Below, in pieces: positions 22,901 through 49,158 of a stretch of 64,000 nt of DNA. The notes beneath the pieces were generated by a model. That model saw only the letters and a list, made by a program, of their open reading frames with translations. It was not told the DNA's origin and did no database searches. Both the position numbers and the translations under genes were made by a program. How positions within the stretch are numbered: the stretch's first letter is position 1; the number at the start of each line of letters is the position of its first letter. Source of the stretch: an uncultured Rhodospirillaceae bacterium (GTDB lineage Bacteria > Pseudomonadota > Alphaproteobacteria > JAEUKQ01); assembly GCA_964414755.1 (NCBI GenBank), contig CAYPXH010000002.1, forward strand, positions 38,696 through 102,695, given 5' to 3'.

Positions 22901-23710
22901 ATGCACCAATTATCTACAGCAAACCAACCAGGTCCAGCACCTGTTAGGGTTCGGAACCTTGAAATAAAAATGGCCGGTAGCCGTGCTGAAATTGATGCAG
23001 CCCAAGCATTGCGTTACCAGGTATTCTACCAAGAAATGTCGGCAAAGCCAAGTGCCAACATGAAGCAACAGCAGCGTGATTTTGATCATTTTGATGCCTT
23101 TTGTGATCATTTGATTATCCTAGACCATGATCTGAAAACAAACCTCCCTCCTGTTATTGCTACCTATCGCTTCATGCGCCGCGAAGCAGCTAAAAAATGT
23201 GGTCAGTTTTATTCACAAGATGAATATAATATCGACTGTTTAATTGATCATGCCGGTGAAATTATGGAGTTAGGGCGGTCATGTGTTTCCCTTCCTTATC
23301 GTAATGGACTGGTGATGCAATTATTATGGAGGGGTGTCGTAGAGTATGTGCGTTTTTATGATGTGCAATTAATGTTTGGGTGTGCTAGCTTGCCTGGAAC
23401 AACAATCGATAATCTTGCGGTGTCTCTTTCTTATTTGCACCATTTTCATCAAGCACCTCCTGAGCTTAGGGCAAAAGCACTGGCTAAGCGTTATGTTAAT
23501 ATGAACCTTCTACCGAAAGATCAAATTGACGAAAAAAATGCAATGCTCACACTACCCCCGTTGATTAAAGGATACCTTAGATTAGGTGGATTTATTGGTG
23601 ATGGTGCCGTTATTGATGATCAGTTTAATACAACTGACGTTAATGTTGTTGTAAAAATGGCTTTGGTAACCGATAAGTATGTAAAACATTATTATGGTCG
23701 TACGGAATAA
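22901..23710 (+). CDS. olsB: Ornithine lipid N-acyltransferase OlsB (GNAT-like, hemolysin-like)
   Basis: 269 aa. N-terminal VRNLEIKMAGSRAEIDAAQALRYQVFYQEM matches the conserved OlsB signature. Followed by an overlapping PlsC-type acyltransferase (olsA), the classical olsBA arrangement. Confidence 0.7.
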   Translation: MHQLSTANQPGPAPVRVRNLEIKMAGSRAEIDAAQALRYQVFYQEMSAKPSANMKQQQRDFDHFDAFCDHLIILDHDLKTNLPPVIATYRFMRREAAKKCGQFYSQDEYNIDCLIDHAGEIMELGRSCVSLPYRNGLVMQLLWRGVVEYVRFYDVQLMFGCASLPGTTIDNLAVSLSYLHHFHQAPPELRAKALAKRYVNMNLLPKDQIDEKNAMLTLPPLIKGYLRLGGFIGDGAVIDDQFNTTDVNVVVKMALVTDKYVKHYYGRTE

Positions 23711-24632
23711 TTTGAATACAATGCAGAGCATGATAAAAGATTCCATGCAACTTTCGCAAAAAAAGCCATATCTCTTTTCATTTGGATCACGTGTTTTAGC
23801 AGCGTGGCGTTTATTTTTATATGCGCTAATTAATCTGGTTTTTATTAGCACACAACTGGTACTTCGTGCCATTAATGGCGATAAAATATCGGGATTCCCA
23901 ATTTTTTATCATCGCTTATGTTGTCGTGTTTTAGGATTAGATATTATCACCAAAGGGACGCAATCACCACACCGTCCAACCCTATATGTTGCAAACCATA
24001 CCAGCTATACCGATATTATTTCTTTTGCCACGCTGATGCCAATTTCATTTATTGGTAAACAAGAAATTGCGAATTGGCCAATTTTTGGGTTATTAGCAAA
24101 GCTTCAACGAACAGTCTTTATTGATCGTAAACGTCATAATACGGATGCACATCGTGATTCAATAACAGGTAGGTTGCAAGAAGGAGACAGCCTGATGTTA
24201 TTTCCTGAAGGAACAACCAATGATGGAAACCGGTTATTACCCTTCCGCAGCTCGTTATTTGCTGTGGCTGAAACACCATTAGTTCATGATCAACGTGTGA
24301 CATCTTCATATGTTTGGGTACAACCAGTTTCAATATCATACACCCATTTGAACGGGTTGCCATTGGGGTATAGCTGGCGTCATCTTGTTGCTTGGTATGG
24401 TGATATTGGTTTTGCCGAACATATGTGGCAATTGCTTAGATTAGGTAGAATTACTATTCGAATAGAATTTCATGAGCCGGTAAACATAACACAATTTAAG
24501 TCCCGTAAGGAGATGAGTGATTACTGTTTTAAAAAAGTTGAAAAGGGCTTTTATGATGCCATAACCGGCCGGCCCTGGACTGGTCCAGAACAGCTATTAT
24601 CTAAAGATCAGCGGAAAACAGATCAATCATGA
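23694..24632 (+). CDS. olsA: Lyso-ornithine lipid O-acyltransferase OlsA (PlsC family)
   Basis: 312 aa with N-terminal TM. HX4D acyltransferase motif NHTSYTD and FPEGT motif. Overlaps olsB. Confidence 0.65.
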   Translation: MVVRNNLNTMQSMIKDSMQLSQKKPYLFSFGSRVLAAWRLFLYALINLVFISTQLVLRAINGDKISGFPIFYHRLCCRVLGLDIITKGTQSPHRPTLYVANHTSYTDIISFATLMPISFIGKQEIANWPIFGLLAKLQRTVFIDRKRHNTDAHRDSITGRLQEGDSLMLFPEGTTNDGNRLLPFRSSLFAVAETPLVHDQRVTSSYVWVQPVSISYTHLNGLPLGYSWRHLVAWYGDIGFAEHMWQLLRLGRITIRIEFHEPVNITQFKSRKEMSDYCFKKVEKGFYDAITGRPWTGPEQLLSKDQRKTDQS

Positions 24633-31395: not shown

Positions 31396-32091
31396 ATGGC
31401 AGATTTAATTGACCACCGCTTCTATGGTCGCCGTAAGGGACGGCGTATGCGTGTGCGGCAGCAACAGGATTTTAATCAGTTGTTGCCAAAATTTTCTTTT
31501 AATCTACCAGAAAGTAGCTTTTGCAACCCAAAGCTATTTTTTTCAAGGCCAACTAAAGATATCTGGCTTGAGATTGGATTTGGTTACGGCGAGCATTTGG
31601 CTATTTTAGCTGAATGCAATCCTGATATTGGGTTTATTGGATGTGAAGTTTTTGAAAATGGTATTGGTCATCTTCTGTCCGCGATTGCAGAAAAGAATAT
31701 GGAAAACATTCGTATTTTTCCGCAACCAGCCCAACCATTGTTACAGCGGTTGCCAGATCAATCAATAGGGCGGATATTTTTACTTTTTCCTGATCCTTGG
31801 CCTAAAAAAAGGCACGCTCGCAGGCGCTTTGTCCAACCTGAAACTATCGAATTACTGGGCCGCATCTTAAAGGATGGCGGGGAATTGCGCATGGCAAGCG
31901 ATGATCCTGGGTTGATTACCTGGATTACTGAGCACATGATGCGCAGCCAAAATTTCCGTTGGCTTGCTGACTCTGCTGGTGACTGGCTAGCTCGGCCAGC
32001 CGACTGGCCGTCAAGTCGATATGAAGAGAAGGCAATTAACAAAGGAATACAACCGGTCTATTGGCGTTTTGAACGATTATCTCGGATTTGA
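31396..32091 (+). CDS. trmB: tRNA (guanine46-N7)-methyltransferase TrmB
   Basis: 231 aa. SAM-MTase fold with FPDPWPKKRH motif diagnostic of TrmB. Confidence 0.85.
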   Translation: MADLIDHRFYGRRKGRRMRVRQQQDFNQLLPKFSFNLPESSFCNPKLFFSRPTKDIWLEIGFGYGEHLAILAECNPDIGFIGCEVFENGIGHLLSAIAEKNMENIRIFPQPAQPLLQRLPDQSIGRIFLLFPDPWPKKRHARRRFVQPETIELLGRILKDGGELRMASDDPGLITWITEHMMRSQNFRWLADSAGDWLARPADWPSSRYEEKAINKGIQPVYWRFERLSRI

Positions 32092-32159
32092 TCGCTACCC
32101 TTGTGTTAACGGCTTGCACAAGAAAAAAGCGTATTAAGGAATAGTTGTTTAGCTCAAAA

Positions 32160-32726
32160 CTAGTCTCTTGAAGAAACTGAAGTCAATACAAGGGATTGAT
32201 AGTGGGGTGGTGGAGATTTTATACCTTTGAATAAAAACTCTTTGCTTTCGTCCCAATTAACACCGCTCTCAAAATAACATATTAATCTCTTCTTTAGTTT
32301 ACCGGGATCACCAATCATTCCTGCAAGTTCTATAAGATCAAGATCCTGATTAATATTCAAGCCAGCTTTGATAACAGGTTCTGGTAAAAGACGGGACGCT
32401 GGATGATGTTCTATTAAATTAGCCCCGTAACGTCCTGGCTCAATGATGGGGCTTAGTATTTTATTAGGAAGAGGGCGTAAGTTTGGCAGAACATCTGAAG
32501 ACCGCATTCTCGCAATCATGAGGGGGCGAAATTTCTGAGGGGCAGCTACGGCACAAAAAAGCTGTTCGGTTTTGTTAAGATCAATTCCTTCAAATTTTTC
32601 AAAGGCACTTTTAATATTAAAGAACTCCATCAAAGTAGGAGTACGAAGCTGTGTTAAAGTGAAAAGATCATCTTTTAATTTTAGTGAAAGAACTAAATTA
32701 TCACGATAAACTAACCTCTTTAGCAA
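32160..32726 (-). CDS. Hypothetical protein (no recognisable family), first gene of AT-rich islet
   Basis: 188-aa ORF in a markedly AT-rich segment. No motif I can assign. Confidence 0.35.
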   Translation of the reverse strand: MLKRLVYRDNLVLSLKLKDDLFTLTQLRTPTLMEFFNIKSAFEKFEGIDLNKTEQLFCAVAAPQKFRPLMIARMRSSDVLPNLRPLPNKILSPIIEPGRYGANLIEHHPASRLLPEPVIKAGLNINQDLDLIELAGMIGDPGKLKKRLICYFESGVNWDESKEFLFKGIKSPPPHYQSLVLTSVSSRD

Positions 32727-33090
32727 GAATTACTCCTAGCTTCTGTTACGGATAGTAAAAAGAAAAACGACCTAATTCGCCACATGGTTTGTTTAAGCCC
32801 ATTAAACTTAAGGGTTATGATTCTACCCAGCAGTTCGTGCTCAATAGATAAAAATTTACAGGCTGGTTTAAAAAGGTTATACCTACCCGAATTTACACAA
32901 ATAGCTAATAAATTGATCTTCAAGCCCACTCTTGCGTGCTATCACTAGGAATACCGCTAATCAAGACAATTATAGTTTATTAGCCATTTAATCACCCAAA
33001 ACTTGTTACCACAAAATTAAATTTTTCTACCTAGAATCCCGTTGATGGAACGGAACATATTGTAATGATGGGTTCAAAACAATGTACGCA

Positions 33091-33324
33091 TCACTTAAGA
33101 TATAAATTTTGACCCACATACCAACCAGTCATCATATCCAGAATGTTTCCTAATATAGCTATTTCTTTCTCGTTATCTTGTTCAGATAAGCTATTCATAT
33201 ACTGGTAAAAATTTTGGATAATTTCTTCTTTAGGGATGCCTTTAGCGTTTAATGCTTTGACGATCATCCTAAGGCGTAGGGTAGGGTTCTTGCTTTTAAG
33301 AGCTTTAGATATTAGATCTTTCAT
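33091..33324 (-). CDS. Small hypothetical protein (77 aa), translationally coupled to upstream 224-aa gene
   Basis: ATGA 4-nt overlap with the 33321..33995 ORF. Charged helical peptide in the AT-rich islet. Confidence 0.3.
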   Translation of the reverse strand: MKDLISKALKSKNPTLRLRMIVKALNAKGIPKEEIIQNFYQYMNSLSEQDNEKEIAILGNILDMMTGWYVGQNLYLK

Positions 33325-33995
33325 GAAAAAAGATTTTCTTTAAGAGGATTCAAAAGAGAAGCCTGTTTTTTTATGTCAACCAGCATTTGATATTTTTTCG
33401 GGAACTGGGTTTGAAAAGTGAGAATACCTTTTTTTGAAAGCTTATCTTCTTCAAAAGCCCAGCTTAAAACGTATTCAGCTATAAACCTATTTCGGTTTAT
33501 ACCGCAAGGGATTAATTGTTGACAATTATACTTCTTGTCTAAGCGCTGTAATAGTTTTTTTGCTAAAACCCGCAATGGCCAGTCGATCCAATTATTATAA
33601 CCCTTGGTCACTAAAATAAGTTTTCGTGAACGAATTATTTTGATTAACGTTACTTCGTTAACATTCGGGTGGGCTACAAAATATTCTAGAAAATTTTCAA
33701 TATTAAAGCTTCTTTGTTTTCTTAGTAAAAAGATTAGATCAGAAATTTTAACAAGTGATTTCTTAATAATCACTTCAATAAAATTCTTAGCTTCAATCAA
33801 GCACCTTCTGGGTTCACTATCAGTGTATATAATGCTTATAGCATAGCAGAAAATTTCTCGAAAGGTTCGTCGTTGATTTTTCCAAATACATTCAATTGTT
33901 GAGGTATCTTTATGATATTCTACAAGATATTTGGAAAATTTAGTACAACCCATTTTGCTTTTAAATTTTTTGTAAGTTACAAGCGTGATCGACAT
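33321..33995 (-). CDS. Hypothetical protein (224 aa), AT-rich islet
   Basis: Long ORF in ~30% GC DNA, same strand as neighbours. No recognisable motifs. Confidence 0.35.
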   Translation of the reverse strand: MSITLVTYKKFKSKMGCTKFSKYLVEYHKDTSTIECIWKNQRRTFREIFCYAISIIYTDSEPRRCLIEAKNFIEVIIKKSLVKISDLIFLLRKQRSFNIENFLEYFVAHPNVNEVTLIKIIRSRKLILVTKGYNNWIDWPLRVLAKKLLQRLDKKYNCQQLIPCGINRNRFIAEYVLSWAFEEDKLSKKGILTFQTQFPKKYQMLVDIKKQASLLNPLKENLFS

Positions 33996-34235
33996 ATTAA
34001 AGAATATGTTCTTATGATGGCAAGTAAATCATATTAACTTGTTTTTTCATAAAGTTTTTTAATCTAGATAATAATAGATTATTTGGATGAGTGGCTAAAC
34101 CCATGCTTTTGGCAAGAGAGTTTGGTAAATTTTTACCAACTTTACTAATGATAGGTAAGATAATGATTGAATATCTAATTCTTCTGCACAACATGTATTC
34201 TGAATAATCTAGATGACCCCCATTTTATCAAATCG

Positions 34236-41505: not shown

Positions 41506-43620
41506 ATGTTTAATATATTTCGTAAAGAGTTAAATTGGGGTGGAAAAAAGTTAACCCTAGAAACGGGGCGTATTGCCAGGCAGGCTGATGGAGCAGTTCT
41601 GGCAACTTATGGTGATACGGTTGTATTGTGTACCGTTTCGGCAGCAAAAGAAGTAAAACCCGAGCAAGATTTTTTTCCATTAACCGTGCATTATCAAGAG
41701 AAAAGTTTTGCAGTTGGCCGGATTCCAGGTGGTTTTTTTAAACGCGAAGGACGCCCTAGTGAGCGCGAAGTTTTGGTATCACGGTTAATTGATCGCCCAA
41801 TAAGACCTCTTTTTCCAGAGAAGTTTTTTAATGAAGTTCAGGTTATTTGCACGGTCTTAAGCCATGATTTGGAAAATGACCCAGATTTGGTTTCGATGAT
41901 TGGGGCTTCAGCAGCGTTAACAATTTCGGGTATTCCCTTTCTTGGGCCGATTGCAGCGGCACGTATTGGTTATATTGGCGGTCAGCTTGTTCTTAACCCT
42001 GGCTTATCGCAAATGTCCAAAAGTGACTTAGATTTGGTTGTGGCAGGGACTGAAGAGGGTGTTCTTATGGTTGAATCCGAAGCCAAAGAGCTTACGGAAG
42101 AAGTTATGCTTGAAGCAGTAATGTTTGGTCATCGCCATTTTCAGCCGGTTATTCAAGCTATTATTGGATTGGCTGAGCAATGTGCCAAAGATCCTTGGGA
42201 ATTACCGACGCCATCTTCGGAATTAACGTTGATGACAGACCAACTTTATCAAAAATACCACCAGCGTATTCGAGATTGCTACAAAATAGCCAACAAGCAG
42301 CAGCGTTATGCAGCTCTTGATACGTTGAAGGCTGAAATTACAGCTTCTGTTGAACAGACTAAACAGCAGCAAGCTTCCGCAATATTTAAAGAGTTGGAAT
42401 ACAAAATTGTTCGCCAAAGCGTTCTTGAAACAGGACGCCGAATTGATGGACGTGATACGGTAACTATACGACCAATCGTTTCCGAAACAAACTTTTTGTC
42501 TAAGGGGCACGGGTCAGCCTTATTTACTCGCGGTGAAACACAAGCCTTGGTGGTTGCGACTCTCGGTACGGGTGAAGACGAACAGATAGTTGACGCGTTG
42601 CAAGGAGAGTACCGGGAAAACTTTATGCTACATTATAATTTCCCACCATACTCGGTTAATGAAGTTGGTCGACTTGGCTCGCCGGGGCGGCGCGAAATTG
42701 GCCACGGTAAGCTCGCTTGGCGCGCCATTCACCCGCTTCTGCCTGCAAAAGAGTCTTTCCCCTACACCATTCGGGTTGTTTCTGAAATTACAGAATCGAA
42801 TGGATCGTCGTCGATGGCAACGGTTTGCGGAACTTCCCTGGCCTTGATGGACGCTGGTGTTCCTTTACCAAGGCCGGTTGCAGGCATTGCCATGGGTTTA
42901 ATCAAGGAACAAGAAAAGTTTGTTGTTCTTTCAGACATTCTTGGCGATGAAGATCATTTGGGTGATATGGATTTTAAGGTAGCTGGAACATCACAGGGTG
43001 TTACAGCCTTGCAGATGGATATTAAAATTACCTCAATTACTTCGGAAATTATGCGTACAGCCTTACAGCAAGCCGCAAAAGGCCGGCTACATATTTTGGC
43101 AGAAATGGCTAAAACATTGCCAATATCACGCCCTGCTGTTAGCGAAAAAGCCCCGCGGATTACAGTTATTAGTGTTCCAAAAGATAAAATACGTGAAATT
43201 ATCGGAACAGGCGGCAAAGTTATTCGTGAAATTTGTGAAGTAACCAAGGCCAAAATTGATATTGATGATGACGGAACAGTTAAGGTGGCTGCTGTTGATG
43301 CAGCTTCTTCACAGGCAGCTATTAACTGGATTCGCGGGATTGTTTCAGAACCCGAAATTGGTACTATCTATACCGGTAAAGTGGTGAAGATCATGGATTT
43401 TGGGGCTTTTGTCAATTTTCTGGGTAGTCGCGATGGTTTGGTGCATGTTAGTGAAATGGCAAATCAGCGCATTAAGCAACCAAGTGATGTTGTGGCTGTG
43501 GGTGATACCGTGCGTGTAAAAGTTTTGGGAGTTGATGATCGCGGTAAAATTAAGTTAAGCATGAAAAATATTGATCAAAAAATTGATCCTGCCTCTGAAA
43601 ACTCAAAAATGACTGTTTGA
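41506..43620 (+). CDS. pnp: Polyribonucleotide nucleotidyltransferase (PNPase)
   Basis: 704 aa. Two RNase PH domains, KH (GGKVIREI) and S1 ([13 protein letters not shown]). Confidence 0.95.
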
Positions 43621-44417
43621 TGGGGTGTGAAATGCTGTTGCCATTAGTAATTGGTCATCGAGGGGCGGCAGCTGTCGCGCCTGAAAATACACTTGAAAGT
43701 ATTAGGCAGGCTTGGCTACAGGGTGTTTCTTGGGTTGAGTTTGATGTTCAGTTAACCAGGGATGACCAAGTCGTTGTTTTTCATGACGATGATTTACGTC
43801 GAACGAGTAATGGTCAAGGTGCGATTCGGAATACCGATTGGGGACGTATCCAGCTTCTGGATGCAGGGAGTTGGTTTTCAAAGGAATGGCAGGGTATTCG
43901 TGTCCCAAATCTGCAGCAAACATTTGCTTTATTGCTAGATTTAGGGCTAAACGCCAATGTTGAAATTAAGATACCGGATGCCTATATGGAAGATCAGGTA
44001 TATATTGAAAAAACTGTTTCCAAGACTATCTCTATAATTGATCAATATTGGACAAGGAATAGGCCATTGTTGATTTCAAGTTTTTCGACATCGGCTTTGC
44101 GGGTTTTGATGGAAAAAGCTCCAAAACTTCCACGTGGATTGTTACTGTGGGGTCAGCCAGATGGTTGGCTGCTACAAGCCCGATCACTTCAATGTTTAAC
44201 GATTAATATTGCTGACCAGTTTGCGTCAGCAGAGTGGGTAAAGGCTATTCGTCATGCTGGATACGAAGCTGCTGTTTATACAATAAATAATGTAAAGCGC
44301 GCGCGTGAATTAATTGAATTAGGTGTCAACGGTTTATTCAGTGATTGTCCTGCTATGGTTCTTGCGGGACTACGTGCGCGCAATTTGTCCGGCGAGACAC
44401 CAACGGGTATTAAGTAA
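43617..44417 (+). CDS. Glycerophosphodiester phosphodiesterase (GDPD family, UgpQ-like)
   Basis: 266 aa. HRG motif ([16 protein letters not shown]) and EFDVQLTRD, typical of GDPD. Confidence 0.75.
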
Positions 44418-44443: not shown

Positions 44444-45868
44444 GTGTTAAAAAGAAAGGGTGTTCATTTGAAAAACTTGCAGCCAATTTTGTTATCTGGA
44501 AGGGAGGTATTACCCCTGATAGAGGGTGGCAAGGGAATTTCTGTTTCAAATGGAGAGAGTTCTGGTGCATGGGCTGCATCCGGTGGGGTTGGTACATTTT
44601 CTGGAGTCAATGCTGATTCGTACGATGATCAGGGGCGGCTAATCCCCCAAGTTTATTACGGCGAGACACGGCGCGAACGACATGAAGAACTTATTCGTTT
44701 TGCCATTAAGGGTGGAATTCATCAAGCGCGTGTAGCGCATGAATTGGCTTCTGGCCAAGGCCGGATTCACATGAACATCTTATGGGAGATGGCTGCTGCC
44801 GAGCAAATTCTAGAAGGTGTTTTGGAAGGTGCAAAAGGATTAGTTCATGGTGTAACCTGTGGCGCTGGTATGCCTTATAAGATTGCCGAAATATGTTCAA
44901 AATTTGGAGTGTATTACTATCCCATAGTCTCGTCTGCTCGTGCTTTTAGGGCGCTTTGGAAAAGGGCATATTACAAATTTGGCGAACGTCTTGGGGCCGT
45001 TGTTTATGAAGATCCATGGCTGGCAGGTGGTCATAATGGATTATCCAACAATGAAGATCCACTAAAACCTCAAGACCCTTATCCCCGTGTTCTTGAACTT
45101 CGGCGCGTCATGCGAGAGGAATGTGGTTTGTCAGATACACCGATTGTCATGGCAGGTGGGGTCTGGTATCTGCGTGAGTGGGAACATTGGATCAACAACC
45201 CCGATCTTGGTCCGATAGCTTTTCAATTTGGTACAAGACCGCTCCTTACCGTTGAAAGCCCTATATCACATGCTTGGAAGAAAAGACTTTTAAACCTTAA
45301 AAAGGGCGATGTTTTTCTTAATCGCTTTAGCCCGACAGGCTTTTATTCGTCGGCGGTTAACAATCCCTTTTTGCACGAGCTTAAGGCGAGATCCGAACGC
45401 CAAATTGCCTATACACTTGATCCAGTAGGGGAACATCAAACACAATTAGCTGTTGGAATTCGTGGTCGGATTGTATATGTCACGGCACCTGATAAGGTGC
45501 GGGCTGACAGCTGGCTCAATCAAGGGTATGACGAGATTCTGCGTACCCCTGATTCGACCCTGATTTTTGTTACTTCTGAAAAAGCTAATGAAATAAGGAC
45601 GGATCAAATTAATTGCATGGGATGTCTTAGTGCGTGTGTTTTTTCAAATTGGTCTCAGAATAAAGAAGGTACAACAGGCAAGAAGGCAGACCCACGTTCA
45701 TTCTGTATTCAAAAAACCCTGCAAACCATTAGCCATTCAAATGATACAGAAAATCAGCTCATGTTTGCTGGACATAATGCATATCGATTTGCAACCGACC
45801 CGTTCTATAAAAACGGGTTTATCCCAACGGTTCAACAATTAATTGAACGGCTTTTGACGGGTGATTAG
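44444..45868 (+). CDS. NMO/FabK-like FMN-dependent oxidoreductase (nitronate monooxygenase family), putative
   Basis: 474 aa. TIM-barrel flavoprotein-like motifs (GVTCGAGMPY, PIVMAGGV). Start uncertain (GTG 44444 or TTG 44468). Confidence 0.45.
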   Translation: MLKRKGVHLKNLQPILLSGREVLPLIEGGKGISVSNGESSGAWAASGGVGTFSGVNADSYDDQGRLIPQVYYGETRRERHEELIRFAIKGGIHQARVAHELASGQGRIHMNILWEMAAAEQILEGVLEGAKGLVHGVTCGAGMPYKIAEICSKFGVYYYPIVSSARAFRALWKRAYYKFGERLGAVVYEDPWLAGGHNGLSNNEDPLKPQDPYPRVLELRRVMREECGLSDTPIVMAGGVWYLREWEHWINNPDLGPIAFQFGTRPLLTVESPISHAWKKRLLNLKKGDVFLNRFSPTGFYSSAVNNPFLHELKARSERQIAYTLDPVGEHQTQLAVGIRGRIVYVTAPDKVRADSWLNQGYDEILRTPDSTLIFVTSEKANEIRTDQINCMGCLSACVFSNWSQNKEGTTGKKADPRSFCIQKTLQTISHSNDTENQLMFAGHNAYRFATDPFYKNGFIPTVQQLIERLLTGD

Positions 45869-45946
45869 CAAGTTAAAAACAAATAATACACAATATTCTT
45901 GCTGTGTGATAGTGAGAGGAAGAATGTTGTTTTAGTCATTTCAAAA

Positions 45947-47356
45947 CTATTGAGAAATAATGAAAATGTTTTTCTTCCATTCCTTGACTTTCAAATGATC
46001 AAAACGACTGTTTAGACAAGATGATAAAAGGGCAACCTTGTCTTTAACTTGGATTTCAGTTAAGGGAGCGAACTCGTTGAGTCGGCTTGCGGGATTGACT
46101 CGACCATTTTCTTTACGCATGCGTAAAGATGATTTTAAACGGTGTCTTAAGAAGCGTATTTTGCGGTGTAAAATGGACAAGGGAGATATCTTAGGAAATC
46201 CGTGTTCTTCAATATAGTGTTCGATTAATGAAATAACCCTTTCAGCCCCCAGTTCTGGTCCATTGAAATTAGAAACAAATTTCTTAAATAAAATTTCTCG
46301 GTATAATGAGATCCGGTCATGTTGTTCGGTTGAAACTATTGCTTGGGGGTTGTTGCTTAACACTGTTATATACTTAAATAATGCATCAGGAGTAGTTACC
46401 TGGTAACTCAGATTATTTGGTAACATGGGGTCAAAATAAGCATGTGATATTGGTCTATAACTTACTGGCTGTAGGCCTAGGATAGCAGCCTCGACTGCAG
46501 TTGTGCATCCATTATGTATGAGAGCAGAACATGCTTTAAGCCAAGGAATAACATTTCCCTCGCGAATGACAACAATATTGGGGTGTTTTTTAGCTACTGC
46601 TACCCATAAGTCATAACCCTCGGCTGGGTGTGGTCTAATAATAATTCTAAAGTTGGAGAATTTTTCTGCTAACGACGGTAAAATTTGGATGAAGTGATCT
46701 AACAGTTGGTGGCGGTAAACTGCCAAATCAGGATCATAATTCTTAAGATTGGCATCAGCTGCTATGCTCCCTAATTCTTCCGGCAATGGTAGGTGCTTAT
46801 ATAATTTATTGAAGGGATTGACCTTACCAAAATTACTATTAAAAAGAATAAAACTTCCGTACTTTTTTTTAATTGAACTGACTTCGTGGTCAAAGAAGCC
46901 ACTAAACTCTGGTCGTAAAATATCAACCCGTGGATTACCGGTTATTTCAATTTGCCCGGGATTTGGGTGAAAATATTCAAGATTTTCTTTGTTGTCTTGA
47001 CCCCAAGCAAAAATAAGTTTGAAATAAGGTAAAGTGTCTTTGTGAACACGACGCTGGCGATAAAGTTCTGGTGAGTAATAAACGAGGGCTTCTTCATCCC
47101 ATCCTGTAATAATTGGTGTTATTACCCTTTGTAGGCTAGCAACCGTTTTATGGTGGCCTTCTGTTAGAGCTTTGGATATATAGATTGTGTTGAACAAATT
47201 TCCCAAGATTTTATTTCTTAATTCTATATGTTGACCAATAAAGACCCTGAAACCACGTTCGGCAGCAATACAGGATAACAACAGTTTTGCATCAAATTCG
47301 CGCACTTGCGACTCAACGGAAACAACTAGATTACCAATGGTTGTTATTGATTTCAT
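45947..47356 (-). CDS. Capsule polysaccharide biosynthesis protein, Capsule_synth family (KpsS/KpsC/LpsZ-like beta-Kdo transferase-like), paralog 2
   Basis: 469 aa. Motifs IIIRPHPAEG and VIREGNVIPWLKACSALIHNGCTTAVEAAILGLQPV resemble E. coli KpsS (IKHHPMD, VHD...LRHAKAVVTINSTAGISALI), recalled from memory. Tandem paralog of the upstream gene. Confidence 0.5.
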   Translation of the reverse strand: MKSITTIGNLVVSVESQVREFDAKLLLSCIAAERGFRVFIGQHIELRNKILGNLFNTIYISKALTEGHHKTVASLQRVITPIITGWDEEALVYYSPELYRQRRVHKDTLPYFKLIFAWGQDNKENLEYFHPNPGQIEITGNPRVDILRPEFSGFFDHEVSSIKKKYGSFILFNSNFGKVNPFNKLYKHLPLPEELGSIAADANLKNYDPDLAVYRHQLLDHFIQILPSLAEKFSNFRIIIRPHPAEGYDLWVAVAKKHPNIVVIREGNVIPWLKACSALIHNGCTTAVEAAILGLQPVSYRPISHAYFDPMLPNNLSYQVTTPDALFKYITVLSNNPQAIVSTEQHDRISLYREILFKKFVSNFNGPELGAERVISLIEHYIEEHGFPKISPLSILHRKIRFLRHRLKSSLRMRKENGRVNPASRLNEFAPLTEIQVKDKVALLSSCLNSRFDHLKVKEWKKNIFIISQ

Positions 47357-48759
47357 TATCTATCCGTTCTCAGAGAAAGATTGAAAATATTTTCTTTGTG
47401 TAGACTAATCTCTAAAGTATCAAAGCAACCATTCAGACATCTTGATAAAAGGGCTATCTTTTTTTGGATCGTCTCAAACGAGAGGGGTGGAAAATCGTTC
47501 TTACGCATGTCATCACTGTAACGGCTATTAACATCTCTCATAGCTGCCAGTTTTTGACGCTTGCGCTTAAGATAAGCCATTCTAGCCTTTAACTTTGAAA
47601 GCCAACATGTTTTCACTTGCTTTCCATTCGCATGTCTTTGAATCTCGTCGAGAATCAATTCGCTTGACAACCTACCTCTAGGATTAGTTATATAATTATC
47701 AATTATTTCCGAAAAATCTTTTTGCGTATTATAAGGTAGGCAAGAGTTATTTTGGTTAGCGTATATCAGCGATTTTAGGGTGCTTACAAGCTCATCCGCA
47801 CTGTAAGTTGGGAGACTGAGTCGAGTTGGCAAAAACGGATCAAAGCGCTCATCAACTAAGGGGTTATAAGAGATTACTGGAACATTCATAATACGCGCCT
47901 CTATGGACGTTGTACAGCCATTATGCAAAACCAGTTTACAGGCTTTCAGCCAATTAACTATGTTACCATCGCGTACAACACAAACATTTGCACAATCTTT
48001 ACTAATCTTTATCCATGGTTCGTGACTTTCTGCTGGATGAGGACGAATAACAAAACGCTGTTTAGGAAAGTTGTTGGCAAGTTGAGGTATAATTTCTAAG
48101 AACTTTTGAAATAACGCATTCTTATAAATAGCTAAATCTGCAACGTAATTTTTTTGGTTTATTTTGGAAAGAATAACTTTTTCTCCTGGCACAGGCAATT
48201 TTTTATAGAGGGTAGCAAATGGATTAACGCTACCAAAATTACTATTGAAAAGAACAAAATCCCCATATTCTTTCTTTATATTAGAGACATCTTGTTCAAA
48301 AAATGACTCAAATTCGCTCCTCAATAGATCACCACGAGGATTACCCGTAATGTAAACAGGAACATTGGTGTCATTATCCATGTTCCAGATAGCTGCACTA
48401 TCATTCCCCCAAGCAAACAAACCATCAAAAAGAGCCATGGATGGCTTATAAATGCGGCGCTTCCTATATAATTCTTGAGAATAATATACTAAAACTTCTT
48501 CATCCCAGCCAAAAATTCTAAAACCAAAACTTTTAATAAAGCTAAGAACTTTGAAACGCTGCGGTGTTATATCTTTTGCTAAGTAAGTCCCAACTGGTAA
48601 ATTACCAATCTCTAAATGAATATCGAATTGGTTGCCCAAAAATACATTAAAACCCCTAGTGGCAGCTAGGCAGGCCAGCAAAAGTTTTGCATCTAACTCG
48701 CGGATCTGTAATTCGATCGGAATAATAAGCGATGGTTTTTGTGATTGAATTGATGTCAT
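47356..48759 (-). CDS. Capsule polysaccharide biosynthesis protein, Capsule_synth family (KpsS/KpsC-like), paralog 1
   Basis: 467 aa. Collinear similarity to 45947..47356 throughout (ELDAKLLL, GWDEE-LVYYS-ELYR-RR, LFNSNFG-VNPF, RPHPAE, HNGCTT). Stop overlaps the start of the downstream paralog (TAATGA). Confidence 0.5.
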   Translation of the reverse strand: MTSIQSQKPSLIIPIELQIRELDAKLLLACLAATRGFNVFLGNQFDIHLEIGNLPVGTYLAKDITPQRFKVLSFIKSFGFRIFGWDEEVLVYYSQELYRKRRIYKPSMALFDGLFAWGNDSAAIWNMDNDTNVPVYITGNPRGDLLRSEFESFFEQDVSNIKKEYGDFVLFNSNFGSVNPFATLYKKLPVPGEKVILSKINQKNYVADLAIYKNALFQKFLEIIPQLANNFPKQRFVIRPHPAESHEPWIKISKDCANVCVVRDGNIVNWLKACKLVLHNGCTTSIEARIMNVPVISYNPLVDERFDPFLPTRLSLPTYSADELVSTLKSLIYANQNNSCLPYNTQKDFSEIIDNYITNPRGRLSSELILDEIQRHANGKQVKTCWLSKLKARMAYLKRKRQKLAAMRDVNSRYSDDMRKNDFPPLSFETIQKKIALLSRCLNGCFDTLEISLHKENIFNLSLRTDR

Positions 48760-49158
48760 TACAATTTTTGATTTGCGCCAAAGGTTAGAAAACTTAATTT
48801 TGTACTTTATATGCTAAAACTAGATTAATATAACACAATAATCAACCCACAGCTTTGATATTAGCTAAAATAATATTAGTAAAGAACAGAGCAAACGACC
48901 AGCGATGGAAAATTTTAAAACTTTTGGCAGATATTGAAATTATTTTGTTGATCGGGATATATGCGCAGCGATTTTATTTACCAATACCAGCCAAACAACC
49001 GTTGAAAAGCTTACTCTTGAAAAATGGTGTGACTACCTTCCTAAATACTGGGTTTTGCCATATCCCAGCCGGCATAACAATTATTTGTTAAAAAAAACAG
49101 TTGTTATGAAGCAATTAATTACAGGGCTTCAAGAACGCGTTCAAGGTATAATTAGCAG

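Follow-up and report, generated by a model that had tools for sequence, protein, structure and literature searches.

Tandem TIGR04396 genes in a strain-variable cassette as candidate transferases for CMP-activated nonulosonic acids

Introduction

Two adjacent and mutually related genes lie among housekeeping genes in a 64-kb stretch of DNA from an uncultured Rhodospirillaceae bacterium (the whole stretch is referred to below as the window), raising the question of what kind of enzymes they encode. The first-pass annotation, made from the sequence alone, placed both proteins in Capsule_synth, the family of KpsS and KpsC, and likened them to a split KpsC, with an orphan role in glycolipid-linker synthesis or one like that of LpsZ/RkpZ in K-antigen or LPS processing. 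Whereas the enzymes that synthesize the sialic-acid-like sugars of bacteria (pseudaminic, legionaminic and related acids) are comparatively well known, little is known about the transferases of these sugars.

Organization and conservation of the gene pair

Both genes are on the minus strand. The upstream gene (47356..48759; ORF list, HMM and AF2 model) encodes a protein of 467 aa, and the downstream gene (45947..47356; ORF list, HMM and BLASTP) encodes a paralog of 469 aa. These ORFs are exactly as first described, namely two collinear paralogs of ~468 aa with a TAATGA overlap: the proteins are 41% identical over 463 aligned residues (BLASTP, E 1e-111), and are collinear from end to end. Read directly from the sequence, the junction (47353..47358, minus strand; gaTAATGAaa) has one base common to the TAA stop codon of the upstream gene (47358-47356) and the ATG start codon of the downstream gene (47356-47354). 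This overlap suggests co-transcription and translational coupling of the pair. Scans for promoters and terminators around the pair were uninformative, since the counts equaled the shuffled expectation.

Two motifs had been claimed for both proteins. The first, [IV][IV]RPHPAE, is present in each (FVIRPHPAE and IIIRPHPAE), while the second is present with a different spacing, W-L-K-A-C-x-x-[LV]-[LI]-H-N-G-C-T-T in both proteins, the earlier version having dropped one residue. The HP motif corresponds to codons R239-P240-H241-P242 of the upstream protein (48034..48045, minus strand; alignments and conservation) and to R241-P242-H243-P244 of the downstream protein (46625..46636, minus strand; pairwise alignment and conservation table). 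Codons N280-G-C-T-T-x-x-E287 of the upstream protein (47899..47922, minus strand; invariant columns and model) specify the part of a GT-B C-domain, a loop and a helix, that presumably binds the nucleotide. An alignment of 39 sequences shows no variation at R239, P240, H241, N280, G281, C282, T283 and E287, and the same eight residues are at least 94% conserved among 123 members of TIGR04396, the family to which the pair is assigned below. In these 123 proteins the R, P and H of the HP motif are 100% conserved and the second P (P242) is 97% conserved; P242 is also kept in all 3 proteins of a three-protein alignment. Of 65 columns with a conservation of 93% or more across the family, the upstream protein retains 63 and the downstream protein 58, including every charged one. 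Judged by this retention, both proteins look functional.

Genomic neighborhood

The pair is flanked by genes for an NMO-like protein (PF03060, 38.6 bits) and a zincin-like protein (Zincin_1, PF06262), in agreement with the first-pass annotation, whose observation that capsule genes are missing nearby was likewise borne out: the 64-kb window contains no capsule, Kdo, sialic-acid or other polysaccharide genes, and Pfam scans of its ~46 ORFs returned housekeeping functions only. When the window was searched by tblastn with the 20 commonest neighbor families of TIGR04396 (NeuB, CTP_transf_3, sulfotransferases, PLD and others), only PstB matched. The ~6-7 kb past each window edge, read from near-identical contigs, are also housekeeping, and neither NeuB, a cytidylyltransferase nor an exporter was found in the window and the ~14 kb beyond it. 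With the E. coli CFT073 kps locus as the reference for association, kpsMT/kpsDE and kdsB/kpsF were found neither in the window nor among the 20 commonest neighbor families of 77 related loci.

A glycerophosphodiester phosphodiesterase (GDPD) gene lies two genes from the pair (43617-44417). A decayed gene of the uracil-DNA-glycosylase (UDG) family (48909..49144, plus strand; tblastn) separates the pair from the zincin gene; the intact UDG of locus L086 matches it only along the C-terminal ~80 residues, in two frames. Relative to the contig of a sister strain (L087), in which the UDG gene is intact (216 aa), the window bears a ~400-bp deletion at 48902. Recent transfer was considered on grounds of composition, but the GC3 of the pair (0.31-0.32) is within the range of the window (0.26-0.43), and there is thus no compositional signal of transfer. 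A Pnp search matched only MAGs labeled Alphaproteobacteria bacterium at 98% identity, and then Rhodospirillales-type taxa at ~74%.

Family assignment and predicted structure

Both proteins matched the NCBIfam model TIGR04396 ("surface carbohydrate biosynthesis protein", surf_polysacc), with 328.0 bits for the upstream and 307.1 bits for the downstream protein against a cutoff of 125. The matches extend over residues 11-438 of the upstream protein (model positions 1-426 of 427) and residues 10-443 of the downstream protein (1-425 of 427). In contrast, an HMM search with PF05159, which the first-pass annotation had itself named as the check on its assignment, gave no match at E<=1 for either protein, and membership in Capsule_synth therefore fails. 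PF05159 is recorded on all 120 listed KpsS homologues, whereas homologues of the pair in the same database are without any Pfam domain. Taken together, these searches indicate that the pair are paralogous members of the uncharacterized, widespread family TIGR04396, and not of Capsule_synth. The family comprises ~120 listed homologues and at least 543 genomic loci, falls into a length class of ~455-475 aa, and is spread over Pseudomonadota, Desulfobacterota and Myxococcota; a text search of the literature found no paper naming TIGR04396, one passing mention of the product name and no biochemical study of any member.

A more distant relationship was detected with NF046086 (the BFO_1060 family), at E values of 3.5e-17 for the downstream and 6.4e-16 for the upstream protein, with model positions 98-343 and 100-344 of 365 aligned. 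The pair are not members of this family, since their scores (62.6 and 58.4 bits) are far under its cutoff of 200, but the homology, albeit remote, is significant. The Tannerella prototypes of NF046086, Tanf_01245 and TFUB4_00887, are genetically required for transfer of Pse and Leg, and bear HP and acidic motifs (PMC5420450). Neither protein matched the sialyltransferase Pfam models (GT38/42/52/80) at E<=1, and neither the family profile nor the C-domain on its own found more than chance-level matches in the PDB, with no TagF, KpsC or sialyltransferase among them.

The AF2 model of the upstream protein (pLDDT 88.2, pTM 0.90) consists of two Rossmann-like domains followed by a basic, helical C-terminal extension, and the fold that it predicts is canonical GT-B. 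The N-terminal Rossmann domain, presumably the acceptor side, carries invariant ExQxRE...K and almost invariant WDEE acidic clusters. The C-terminal Rossmann domain bears the R-P-H-P motif, modeled after predicted strand 235-239, and the H-N-G-C-T-T-x-x-E loop, modeled at the junction of strand 276-279 and helix 284-290; its presumed role in nucleotide binding follows from the general architecture of GT-B enzymes. The closest structures are the CMP-releasing enzymes TarL, TagF and Bcs3, along with UDP-GlcNAc 2-epimerases; the best match is a polyol-phosphate polymerase. Fold similarity of the model to TagF, TarL and Bcs3 is high, at a sequence identity of 11-14%.

Gene context of TIGR04396

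We examined 84 fetched loci, including a few duplicate records, of which 77 are non-redundant. Within 6 kb, the commonest neighbors across the 77 loci were NeuB (27) and CTP_transf_3 (27), and one or the other of NeuB and a NeuA-like cytidylyltransferase was present at 38; about half of the related loci have neither within this distance, many of these being short contigs. Two or more family copies were found at 48 of the 84 loci (a count that includes a few duplicates), ranging from 2 to 5 paralogs per locus, and 20 adjacent pairs are on the same strand. Tandem copies are thus a habit of TIGR04396.

At two loci of alphaproteobacterial type (L013, from Dongia, and L017), the gene order is NeuB, a NeuC-like epimerase and two successive family genes, and in L017 a cytidylyltransferase comes next. 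A member of the family also lies on an Azospirillum thermophilum plasmid, inside an annotated legionaminic-acid cluster together with LegB, LegC, NeuC, a cytidylyltransferase and NeuB; it was the only relative, and a distant one, recovered by a search of a plasmid collection. The same adjacency to neuABC is reported in a Herbaspirillum genome paper (PMC6679464).

A strain-variable cassette and a mosaic allele

Alignment of the window with sister contig L087 delimits a strain-variable cassette (45871..48364, no strand assigned) made up of the 3' two-thirds of the upstream gene and the whole downstream gene. The flanks share 92-97% nucleotide identity (blastn flank blocks, 95.5% and 96.7%), while identity drops to 60-73% at ~48364, and the sequences are unalignable from ~47825 to 45871. 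The two upstream alleles are correspondingly mosaic, with protein identities of 97.2% over residues 1-145, 58.5% over residues 146-345 and 41.7% over residues 346-467. L087 contains one complete family gene and no second paralog. Instead, L087 and L088, the latter cut by the contig end, possess an unrelated gene of 295-296 aa; the replacing genes of the sister strain (295 and 268 aa) have no NCBIfam match and no Pfam match on record. Gene conversion from the downstream paralog was considered as the source of the mosaic, and was rejected, since the distance to the downstream gene is the same for the two upstream alleles in each segment.

Discussion

Could the two proteins nevertheless be retaining β-Kdo transferases (Capsule_synth/GT107), whether as a split KpsC or as a KpsS-plus-KpsC-like pair, that serve a poly-Kdo glycolipid linker or act in the manner of RkpZ/LpsZ? 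The resemblance to KpsS that the first-pass annotation had pointed to is real but local. BLASTP with E. coli KpsS yields 25% identity across 128 aa (E 7e-5 as a single-pair comparison), aligning VIRPHPAE with VIKHHPMD and HNGCTTSIEA with TINSTAGISA, that is, the HP motif and the nucleotide-binding helix that follows; at E<0.01, KpsS is matched by 7 of the 123 family members and by 0 of 123 shuffled controls. Any Gram-negative cell that makes LPS would contain CMP-Kdo even with no linked pathway, and an unlinked supply would fit the orphan context, while genes for PLD-like proteins, CDP-alcohol phosphatidyltransferases and diacylglycerol kinases that recur at some related loci hint at a lipid-linked product. 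However, hhalign gave the family profile a probability of 0.2% (E 0.36) against a 13-sequence KpsS profile, which is shallow because its sequences are closely related (at least 63% identical), and 0.2-1.5% across this profile and single KpsS and KpsC sequences, even though the HP region was aligned. The N-terminal halves gave no reliable alignment with KpsS/KpsC, and the family profile found no PDB chain at E<=10 in a searched copy whose inclusion of the published KpsC-N structures is unconfirmed. The nucleophile of KpsC-N is an Asp (D160). β-Kdo glycosyltransferases represent a radical departure from the canonical GT-B fold (PMC10148158), and this atypical fold is not seen in our model. The resemblance to KpsS is that of an HP motif common to CMP-dependent GT-B enzymes, and is not diagnostic of GT107, because sialyltransferases share it. 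Pathway neighbors of the family are of the NeuB type rather than KdsA. Finally, none of the 123 members is a fused two-module protein, and the absence of a second paralog from the sister strain argues against an obligate split KpsC. We therefore regard this reading of the pair as very unlikely. What survives of the original proposal is the orphan surface-glycan function: a transferase of a CMP-activated keto-sugar acid, orphaned from its pathway, fits the family context, whereas membership in KpsS/KpsC is not supported.

It also appears unlikely, albeit less so, that the pair are TagF/TarL-like phosphotransferases, which would transfer alditol- or sugar-phosphate from a CDP-activated donor to a phosphodiester-linked (teichoic-acid-like) polymer or lipid head group. 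A weak signal points in this direction, in that 22 of the 123 members, and 1 of the 123 shuffled sequences, reach E<0.01 against a CDP-glycerol glycerophosphotransferase-family protein of E. coli CFT073; the lipid-related genes named above and the nearby GDPD gene would be in keeping with it as well. The catalytic residue of these enzymes is a His (H444 in TagF and H300 in TarL). Arguing against such an activity, neither protein matched PF04464 (Glyphos_transf) at E<=1, the dominant neighbors of the family are NeuB and the NeuA-type CTP_transf_3, no polyol-phosphate (glycerol-3-phosphate or ribitol-phosphate) cytidylyltransferase is among its 20 commonest neighbor families, and the GDPD gene lies in the conserved flank rather than in the cassette. 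The least probable of the alternatives is that the proteins are not transferases at all, but 2-epimerase- or hydrolase-like enzymes of sugar nucleotides, or non-catalytic scaffolds of a nonulosonic acid pathway. A faint match of one of the two proteins to Epimerase_2 (PF02350; 12.4 bits against a threshold of 30.6, E 0.069) hints at this, but separate, bona fide Epimerase_2/NeuC genes adjoin family genes at several related loci, the significant HMM relationship (E about 1e-17) is with the transferase family NF046086, and 2-5 paralogs per locus are typical of transferases rather than pathway enzymes.

Instead, we favor the view that the pair are probably transferases of CMP-activated nonulosonic (or ulosonic) acids for a surface glycan, forming a strain-variable cassette with the donor pathway encoded elsewhere. 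The best structural match of the model to a polyol-phosphate polymerase, and not to a sialyltransferase, speaks against this view. So do the missing NeuB, cytidylyltransferase and exporter genes in and around the window, the roughly half of related loci with neither NeuB nor a cytidylyltransferase within 6 kb, the lack of a match to sialyltransferase Pfam models and the sub-cutoff NF046086 scores. Both proteins would be cytoplasmic GT-B enzymes with CMP as the donor leaving group, and the HP histidine may act on the CMP phosphate in the same way as its counterpart in sialyl- and Kdo-transferases. As donor, a nonulosonic acid activated with CMP (sialic, legionaminic or pseudaminic in type) would be the most likely, CMP-Kdo being less so; donor synthesis, being unlinked, would be encoded elsewhere in the genome. 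The sugar may be added onto LPS, capsule, a glycolipid or a glycoprotein. Since the two genes are probably co-transcribed, two residues could be added, or two linkages made, in succession. The sister strain has kept the N-domain of the first enzyme together with a divergent C-domain, unrelated genes taking the place of the second enzyme; exchange of the cassette between near-identical flanks would thus change the glycan between strains.

We tentatively extend this view to the family as a whole. TIGR04396 may, as a possibility that we hold with some doubt, be an unrecognized family of CMP-nonulosonic acid glycosyltransferases, often acting in conserved upstream/downstream pairs. Among many Desulfobacterota and Gammaproteobacteria, family genes occur with those for NeuB, a cytidylyltransferase, a sulfotransferase, PLD-like proteins, CDP-alcohol phosphatidyltransferase and diacylglycerol kinase, a combination that would fit synthesis of a phospholipid-anchored, possibly sulfated glycan of nonulosonic acids. 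If so, this glycan would be a functional analogue of the KpsS/KpsC poly-Kdo linker without being homologous to it. In the species of the window, recombination exactly at the GT-B domain boundary would exchange the domain on the donor side along with the partner gene, and would create strain-specific surface glycans.

For the window itself the significance is modest: the family assignment is corrected, an orphan strain-variable pair is described, and the pair adds ordinary, though informative, new members to a known, uncharacterized family. More broadly, a large, unstudied family is tied to the pathways of sialic-acid-like sugars by its gene neighbors, the invariance of its HP motif and a remote homology with the Tannerella enzymes. 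If confirmed, this would provide glycobiologists with a new enzyme family to test and improve the annotation of many environmental genomes, and the mosaic allele is a compact case, from nature, of how strains may reshuffle the specificity of their surface glycans.

Comparison with known systems

The pair differs from the UDP-GlcNAc 2-epimerases NeuC and WecB in showing only a sub-threshold Epimerase_2 match, and genuine NeuC genes co-occur with TIGR04396. TagF, TarL and Bcs3, the CDP-polyol phosphotransferase polymerases, share its predicted fold; in contrast to them, the pair lacks PF04464, and the partners of TIGR04396 are NeuB/NeuA-type rather than polyol-phosphate cytidylyltransferases. 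With KpsS and KpsC (PF05159, CAZy GT107) there is local alignment of the HP motif and following helix, a plausible use of CMP-activated keto-sugar acids by both, two related catalytic modules in one pathway and, at some related TIGR04396 loci, a possible lipid-linked product. However, no HMM or profile-profile relationship connects them, the fold predicted for TIGR04396 is canonical whereas that of KpsC is atypical GT-B, kps export genes are missing near the pair, and the TIGR04396 modules are never fused (123 members), the second being dispensable in the sister strain.

Compared to the rest of TIGR04396, the pair matches over its full length, falls within the same length class and has the same invariant residues. 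The difference is one of context: most members reside within glycan or nonulosonic-acid clusters, while the window pair is alone among housekeeping genes. With Tanf_01245 and TFUB4_00887 the pair shares remote HMM homology over most of the model, an HP motif, an acidic D/E-D/E cluster and a TagB-like or GT-B prediction, and TIGR04396 members likewise adjoin CMP-nonulosonic acid biosynthesis genes. The acidic motif of the Tannerella proteins is D/E-D/E-G, whereas TIGR04396 has an almost invariant W-D-E-E without the following Gly. In Tannerella, too, alleles of different strains share one half of the protein and have the other swapped (PMC5420450); there the C-terminal half is conserved and the N-terminal half varies, while the locus of the window pair displays the reverse.

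Organization of the gene pair and its surroundings

Both genes lie on the minus strand where the first-pass annotation had placed them, the upstream gene at 48759-47356 (467 aa) and the downstream gene at 47356-45947 (469 aa). The view that their products are collinear paralogs likewise held, as BLASTP aligned the two proteins from end to end (41% identity, 60% positives, E 1e-111), and the sequence itself bore out the reported TAATGA overlap, in which the stop codon of the first gene and the start codon of the second have one base in common. Both motifs quoted for the pair were present, but the spacing proposed for the second was incorrect, there being one extra residue between A-C and H-N-G-C-T-T. 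The neighbors were, as described, an NMO-like protein and a Zincin_1 protein (Pfam). The NMO-like gene (44444-45868, plus strand, 474 aa) displayed a modest match to PF03060 (38.6 bits) and a weak FabK-type match.

Pfam scans of about 46 ORFs revealed an ordinary alphaproteobacterial housekeeping neighborhood that includes the pst operon, mutS, murJ, an olsB/olsA-like pair, miaB, lnt, metK, nusA-infB-rbfA-truB-rpsO-pnp, GDPD, a Bax inhibitor and an RND pump. The olsB/olsA-like genes are adjacent Acetyltransf_5 and Acyltransferase genes (22901-24632, plus strand) whose resemblance to the ornithine-lipid synthesis pair is at the level of Pfam domains. These scans found no capsule, Kdo or nonulosonic-acid genes in the window, and tblastn searches using the twenty commonest neighbors of the NCBIfam family TIGR04396 as queries found nothing relevant there, in agreement with the earlier claim that capsule genes are absent nearby. 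Near-identical contigs showed the 6-7 kb past each edge of the window to be housekeeping as well.

Family assignment

The pair had been assigned to Capsule_synth (PF05159), the family of the β-Kdo transferases KpsS and KpsC, with a Pfam search proposed as the check; neither protein matched PF05159, even at E≤1. Instead, both matched TIGR04396 ('surface carbohydrate biosynthesis protein') over their full length, with 328 bits for the upstream and 307 bits for the downstream protein against a cutoff of 125 bits. Matches to NF046086 (BFO_1060 glycosyltransferase family) were significant but sub-threshold (E 6.4e-16 and 3.5e-17, respectively). The prototypes of NF046086, Tannerella forsythia Tanf_01245 and TFUB4_00887, have HP and acidic motifs in common with bacterial sialyltransferases, and knockout and complementation demonstrated that both are required for attaching a derivative of pseudaminic or legionaminic acid to the protein O-glycan (PMC5420450). 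A database search returned 340 homologues of the pair; the best 120 of these were nearly all about 455-475 aa long (the three outliers measured 418, 505 and 506 aa), and none had a precomputed Pfam domain. For E. coli KpsS, each of the 120 homologues listed in the same database carried PF05159. The pair are new members of TIGR04396, a catalogued but experimentally uncharacterized family.

Predicted structure and conserved residues

An AlphaFold2 model built from a 39-sequence alignment was confident (pLDDT 88.2, pTM 0.90) and consisted of two Rossmann-like domains followed by a helical, basic C-terminal extension. N-domain strands run to residue 137 (upstream protein numbering), an inter-domain helix spans 148-165, and C-domain strands begin at 168. 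Among the positions that are invariant or almost so are E16, Q18, R20, E21, K25, K62, D86-E87-E88, W117-G118, G139-N-P-R142, D144, N172, N174, R239-P-H-P242 (the HP motif), E244, W270, H279-N-G-C-T-T284 and E287. The upstream protein retained 63 of the 65 columns that are ≥93% conserved in the family, while the downstream protein retained 58, including all of the charged ones. Judged by these residues, both proteins look catalytically competent.

A strain-variable cassette

The Pnp protein encoded in the window shares 98% identity with its counterpart in another 'Alphaproteobacteria bacterium' MAG, followed at about 74% by Rhodospirillales-type taxa. Metagenomes containing this species include SRR14932511, SRR14092377 and ERZ926158. 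In the sister contig from that MAG (L087), nucleotide identity with the window was 95.5% and 96.7% on the two sides of the pair. Between its NMO and uracil-DNA glycosylase (UDG) genes, L087 carries a 268-aa gene, a 295-aa gene and a single 467-aa family gene. The latter is a mosaic relative to the upstream gene: the first ~395 nt are 92-97% identical, identity drops to 60-73% at about position 48364, and the stretch from about 47825 to 45871 is unalignable. At the protein level, the two upstream alleles are 97.2% identical over residues 1-145, 58.5% over 146-345 and 41.7% over 346-467. The break in the mosaic falls where the two GT-B domains of the model meet. In every segment, the downstream paralog is as far from one upstream allele as from the other (30-47%), which rules out gene conversion from this paralog as the source of the mosaic.

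In L087 (14487-16358, corresponding to 45871-47356 of the window), the 295-aa and 268-aa proteins take the place of the second paralog; neither of them has an NCBIfam match or a Pfam match on record. Based on its W-H-C-D and H-R-G motifs, the 295-aa protein may be an Fe(II)/2-oxoglutarate dioxygenase. The alternative cassette type also occurs in L086 and in L088 (GCA_016794225.1), the latter bearing the same gene at 296 aa, and the window type occurs in three other assemblies (L001-L003). These results show that partnership with the second paralog is not obligatory, and this counts against the proposal that the pair is a split KpsC. The joint swap of a donor-side domain and the partner gene, with the flanks conserved, is as expected for a surface-glycan specificity cassette. 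The NMO-like gene belongs to the conserved flank, outside the cassette.

Other differences were also apparent. Between the pair and the zincin gene lies a frameshifted 3' remnant of a UDG-family gene (48909-49144, plus strand), with a deletion close to 48902. L086 and L087 have the intact gene (197-216 aa), which has decayed in the window-type allele. A second segment, 32076-34170, was unalignable with the sister contig despite flanks that align at 92-96%. It contains low-GC ORFs (32160-32726 and 33321-33995; GC 0.31-0.38) without Pfam matches, and L087 has other small genes at this position, one of them DUF8309.

Genomic context of TIGR04396

Species-representative genomes contain at least 543 TIGR04396 loci, mostly in Pseudomonadota, Desulfobacterota and Myxococcota; 76 of these were fetched, and ORF calling and clustering were done afresh. 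Two to five family copies were present in 48 of 84 loci, with 20 adjacent same-strand pairs. For the tandem pairs of Desulfobacterota and Gammaproteobacteria (L023, L028, L033, L034, L038, L041, L046, L049, L063, L064, L068, L074, L076, L077 and L081), the upstream and downstream members form separate clades, which indicates an old duplication with gene order conserved.

Within 6 kb, NeuB and a CTP_transf_3 cytidylyltransferase were each found in 27 of 77 loci, and one or the other in 38. Given that NeuB accounts for no more than one gene in thousands, we reason that this enrichment is very strong. Sulfotransferases (23/77), PLD-like (15/77), transketolase-like (12/77), SDR (11/77), GT4-like (10/77) and aldehyde dehydrogenase (10/77) genes followed, with lower counts for 2-hydroxyacid dehydrogenase, GFO/IDH, HAD, CDP-alcohol phosphatidyltransferase, Elm1-like, Epimerase_2, DegT and DAG kinase. 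Most telling are the tandem pairs of alphaproteobacterial type. In L013 (Dongia sp.) and L017 these follow NeuB and a NeuC-like epimerase, in the order NeuB, epimerase, family gene, family gene, and a cytidylyltransferase comes next in L017. On a plasmid of the cultured Azospirillum thermophilum (L085), a more distant member with the same PGAP name lies between a methyltransferase and NeuB, in a cluster with LegB, LegC, NeuC, acylneuraminate cytidylyltransferase and an amidotransferase. A Herbaspirillum genome paper (PMC6679464) describes this adjacency to neuABC as well. Other cultivable carriers of the family are Nitrosovibrio tenuis Nv1 (L059) and Elongatibacter sediminis (L014). Besides NeuB and a cytidylyltransferase, genes for sulfotransferases, PLD-like and transketolase-like proteins, aldehyde dehydrogenase, CDP-alcohol phosphatidyltransferase and DAG kinase recur near family members (e.g., L005, L007, L039, L048, L059 and L083). 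They could form an unusual pathway for a nonulosonic-acid glycan, possibly one that is sulfated or lipid-anchored.

Proposed activity and comparison with KpsS/KpsC and TagF

GT-B enzymes generally bind the donor on the C-domain and the acceptor on the N-domain; the same division, with a CMP-activated donor, would apply to the pair. CMP release is common to all the structures closest to the model, in sialyl- and Kdo-transferases it is the HP histidine that acts on this phosphate group of CMP (PMC5420450, PMC10148158), and the genomic partners of the family make and activate nonulosonic acids. From these points we infer that the pair are CMP-nonulosonic acid glycosyltransferases or, failing that, use CMP-Kdo.

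The main rival is a TagF-like phosphotransferase activity. Using E. coli CFT073 references (KpsC and KpsS from the annotated kps locus), 22 of 123 family members reached E<0.01 against the TagF-like protein, compared to 7 against KpsS and 3 against KpsC; in this small test, shuffled sequences gave 1, 0 and 0, respectively. TIGR04396 therefore has a weak C-domain signal in common with several CMP-releasing GT-B families, slightly stronger toward the TagF type. Pfam matches of the pair were limited to faint ones to DUF354 and Epimerase_2, and an epimerase-like role is a minor alternative to nonulosonic acid transfer.

The proposed resemblance to KpsS motifs proved real, though local: BLASTP returned one alignment of the upstream protein with KpsS (128 aa, 25% identity, E 7e-5 for a single pair), which pairs VIRPHPAE with VIKHHPMD and HNGCTTSIEA with TINSTAGISA. 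At the profile level, hhalign comparison of the 39-sequence family profile with KpsS, KpsC and a KpsS profile gave probabilities of 0.2-1.5%, and the family profile matched no chain in the PDB copy searched at E≤10, although crystal structures of KpsC-N are published (PMC10148158). Together with the Capsule_synth and split KpsC assignments, the β-Kdo linker interpretation was not confirmed. The family-level tie to nonulosonic acids and the domain-boundary mosaic merit follow-up. The general idea of orphan surface-carbohydrate transferases that use a CMP-activated acidic sugar survives, and everything in the locus is of a kind seen in known systems.
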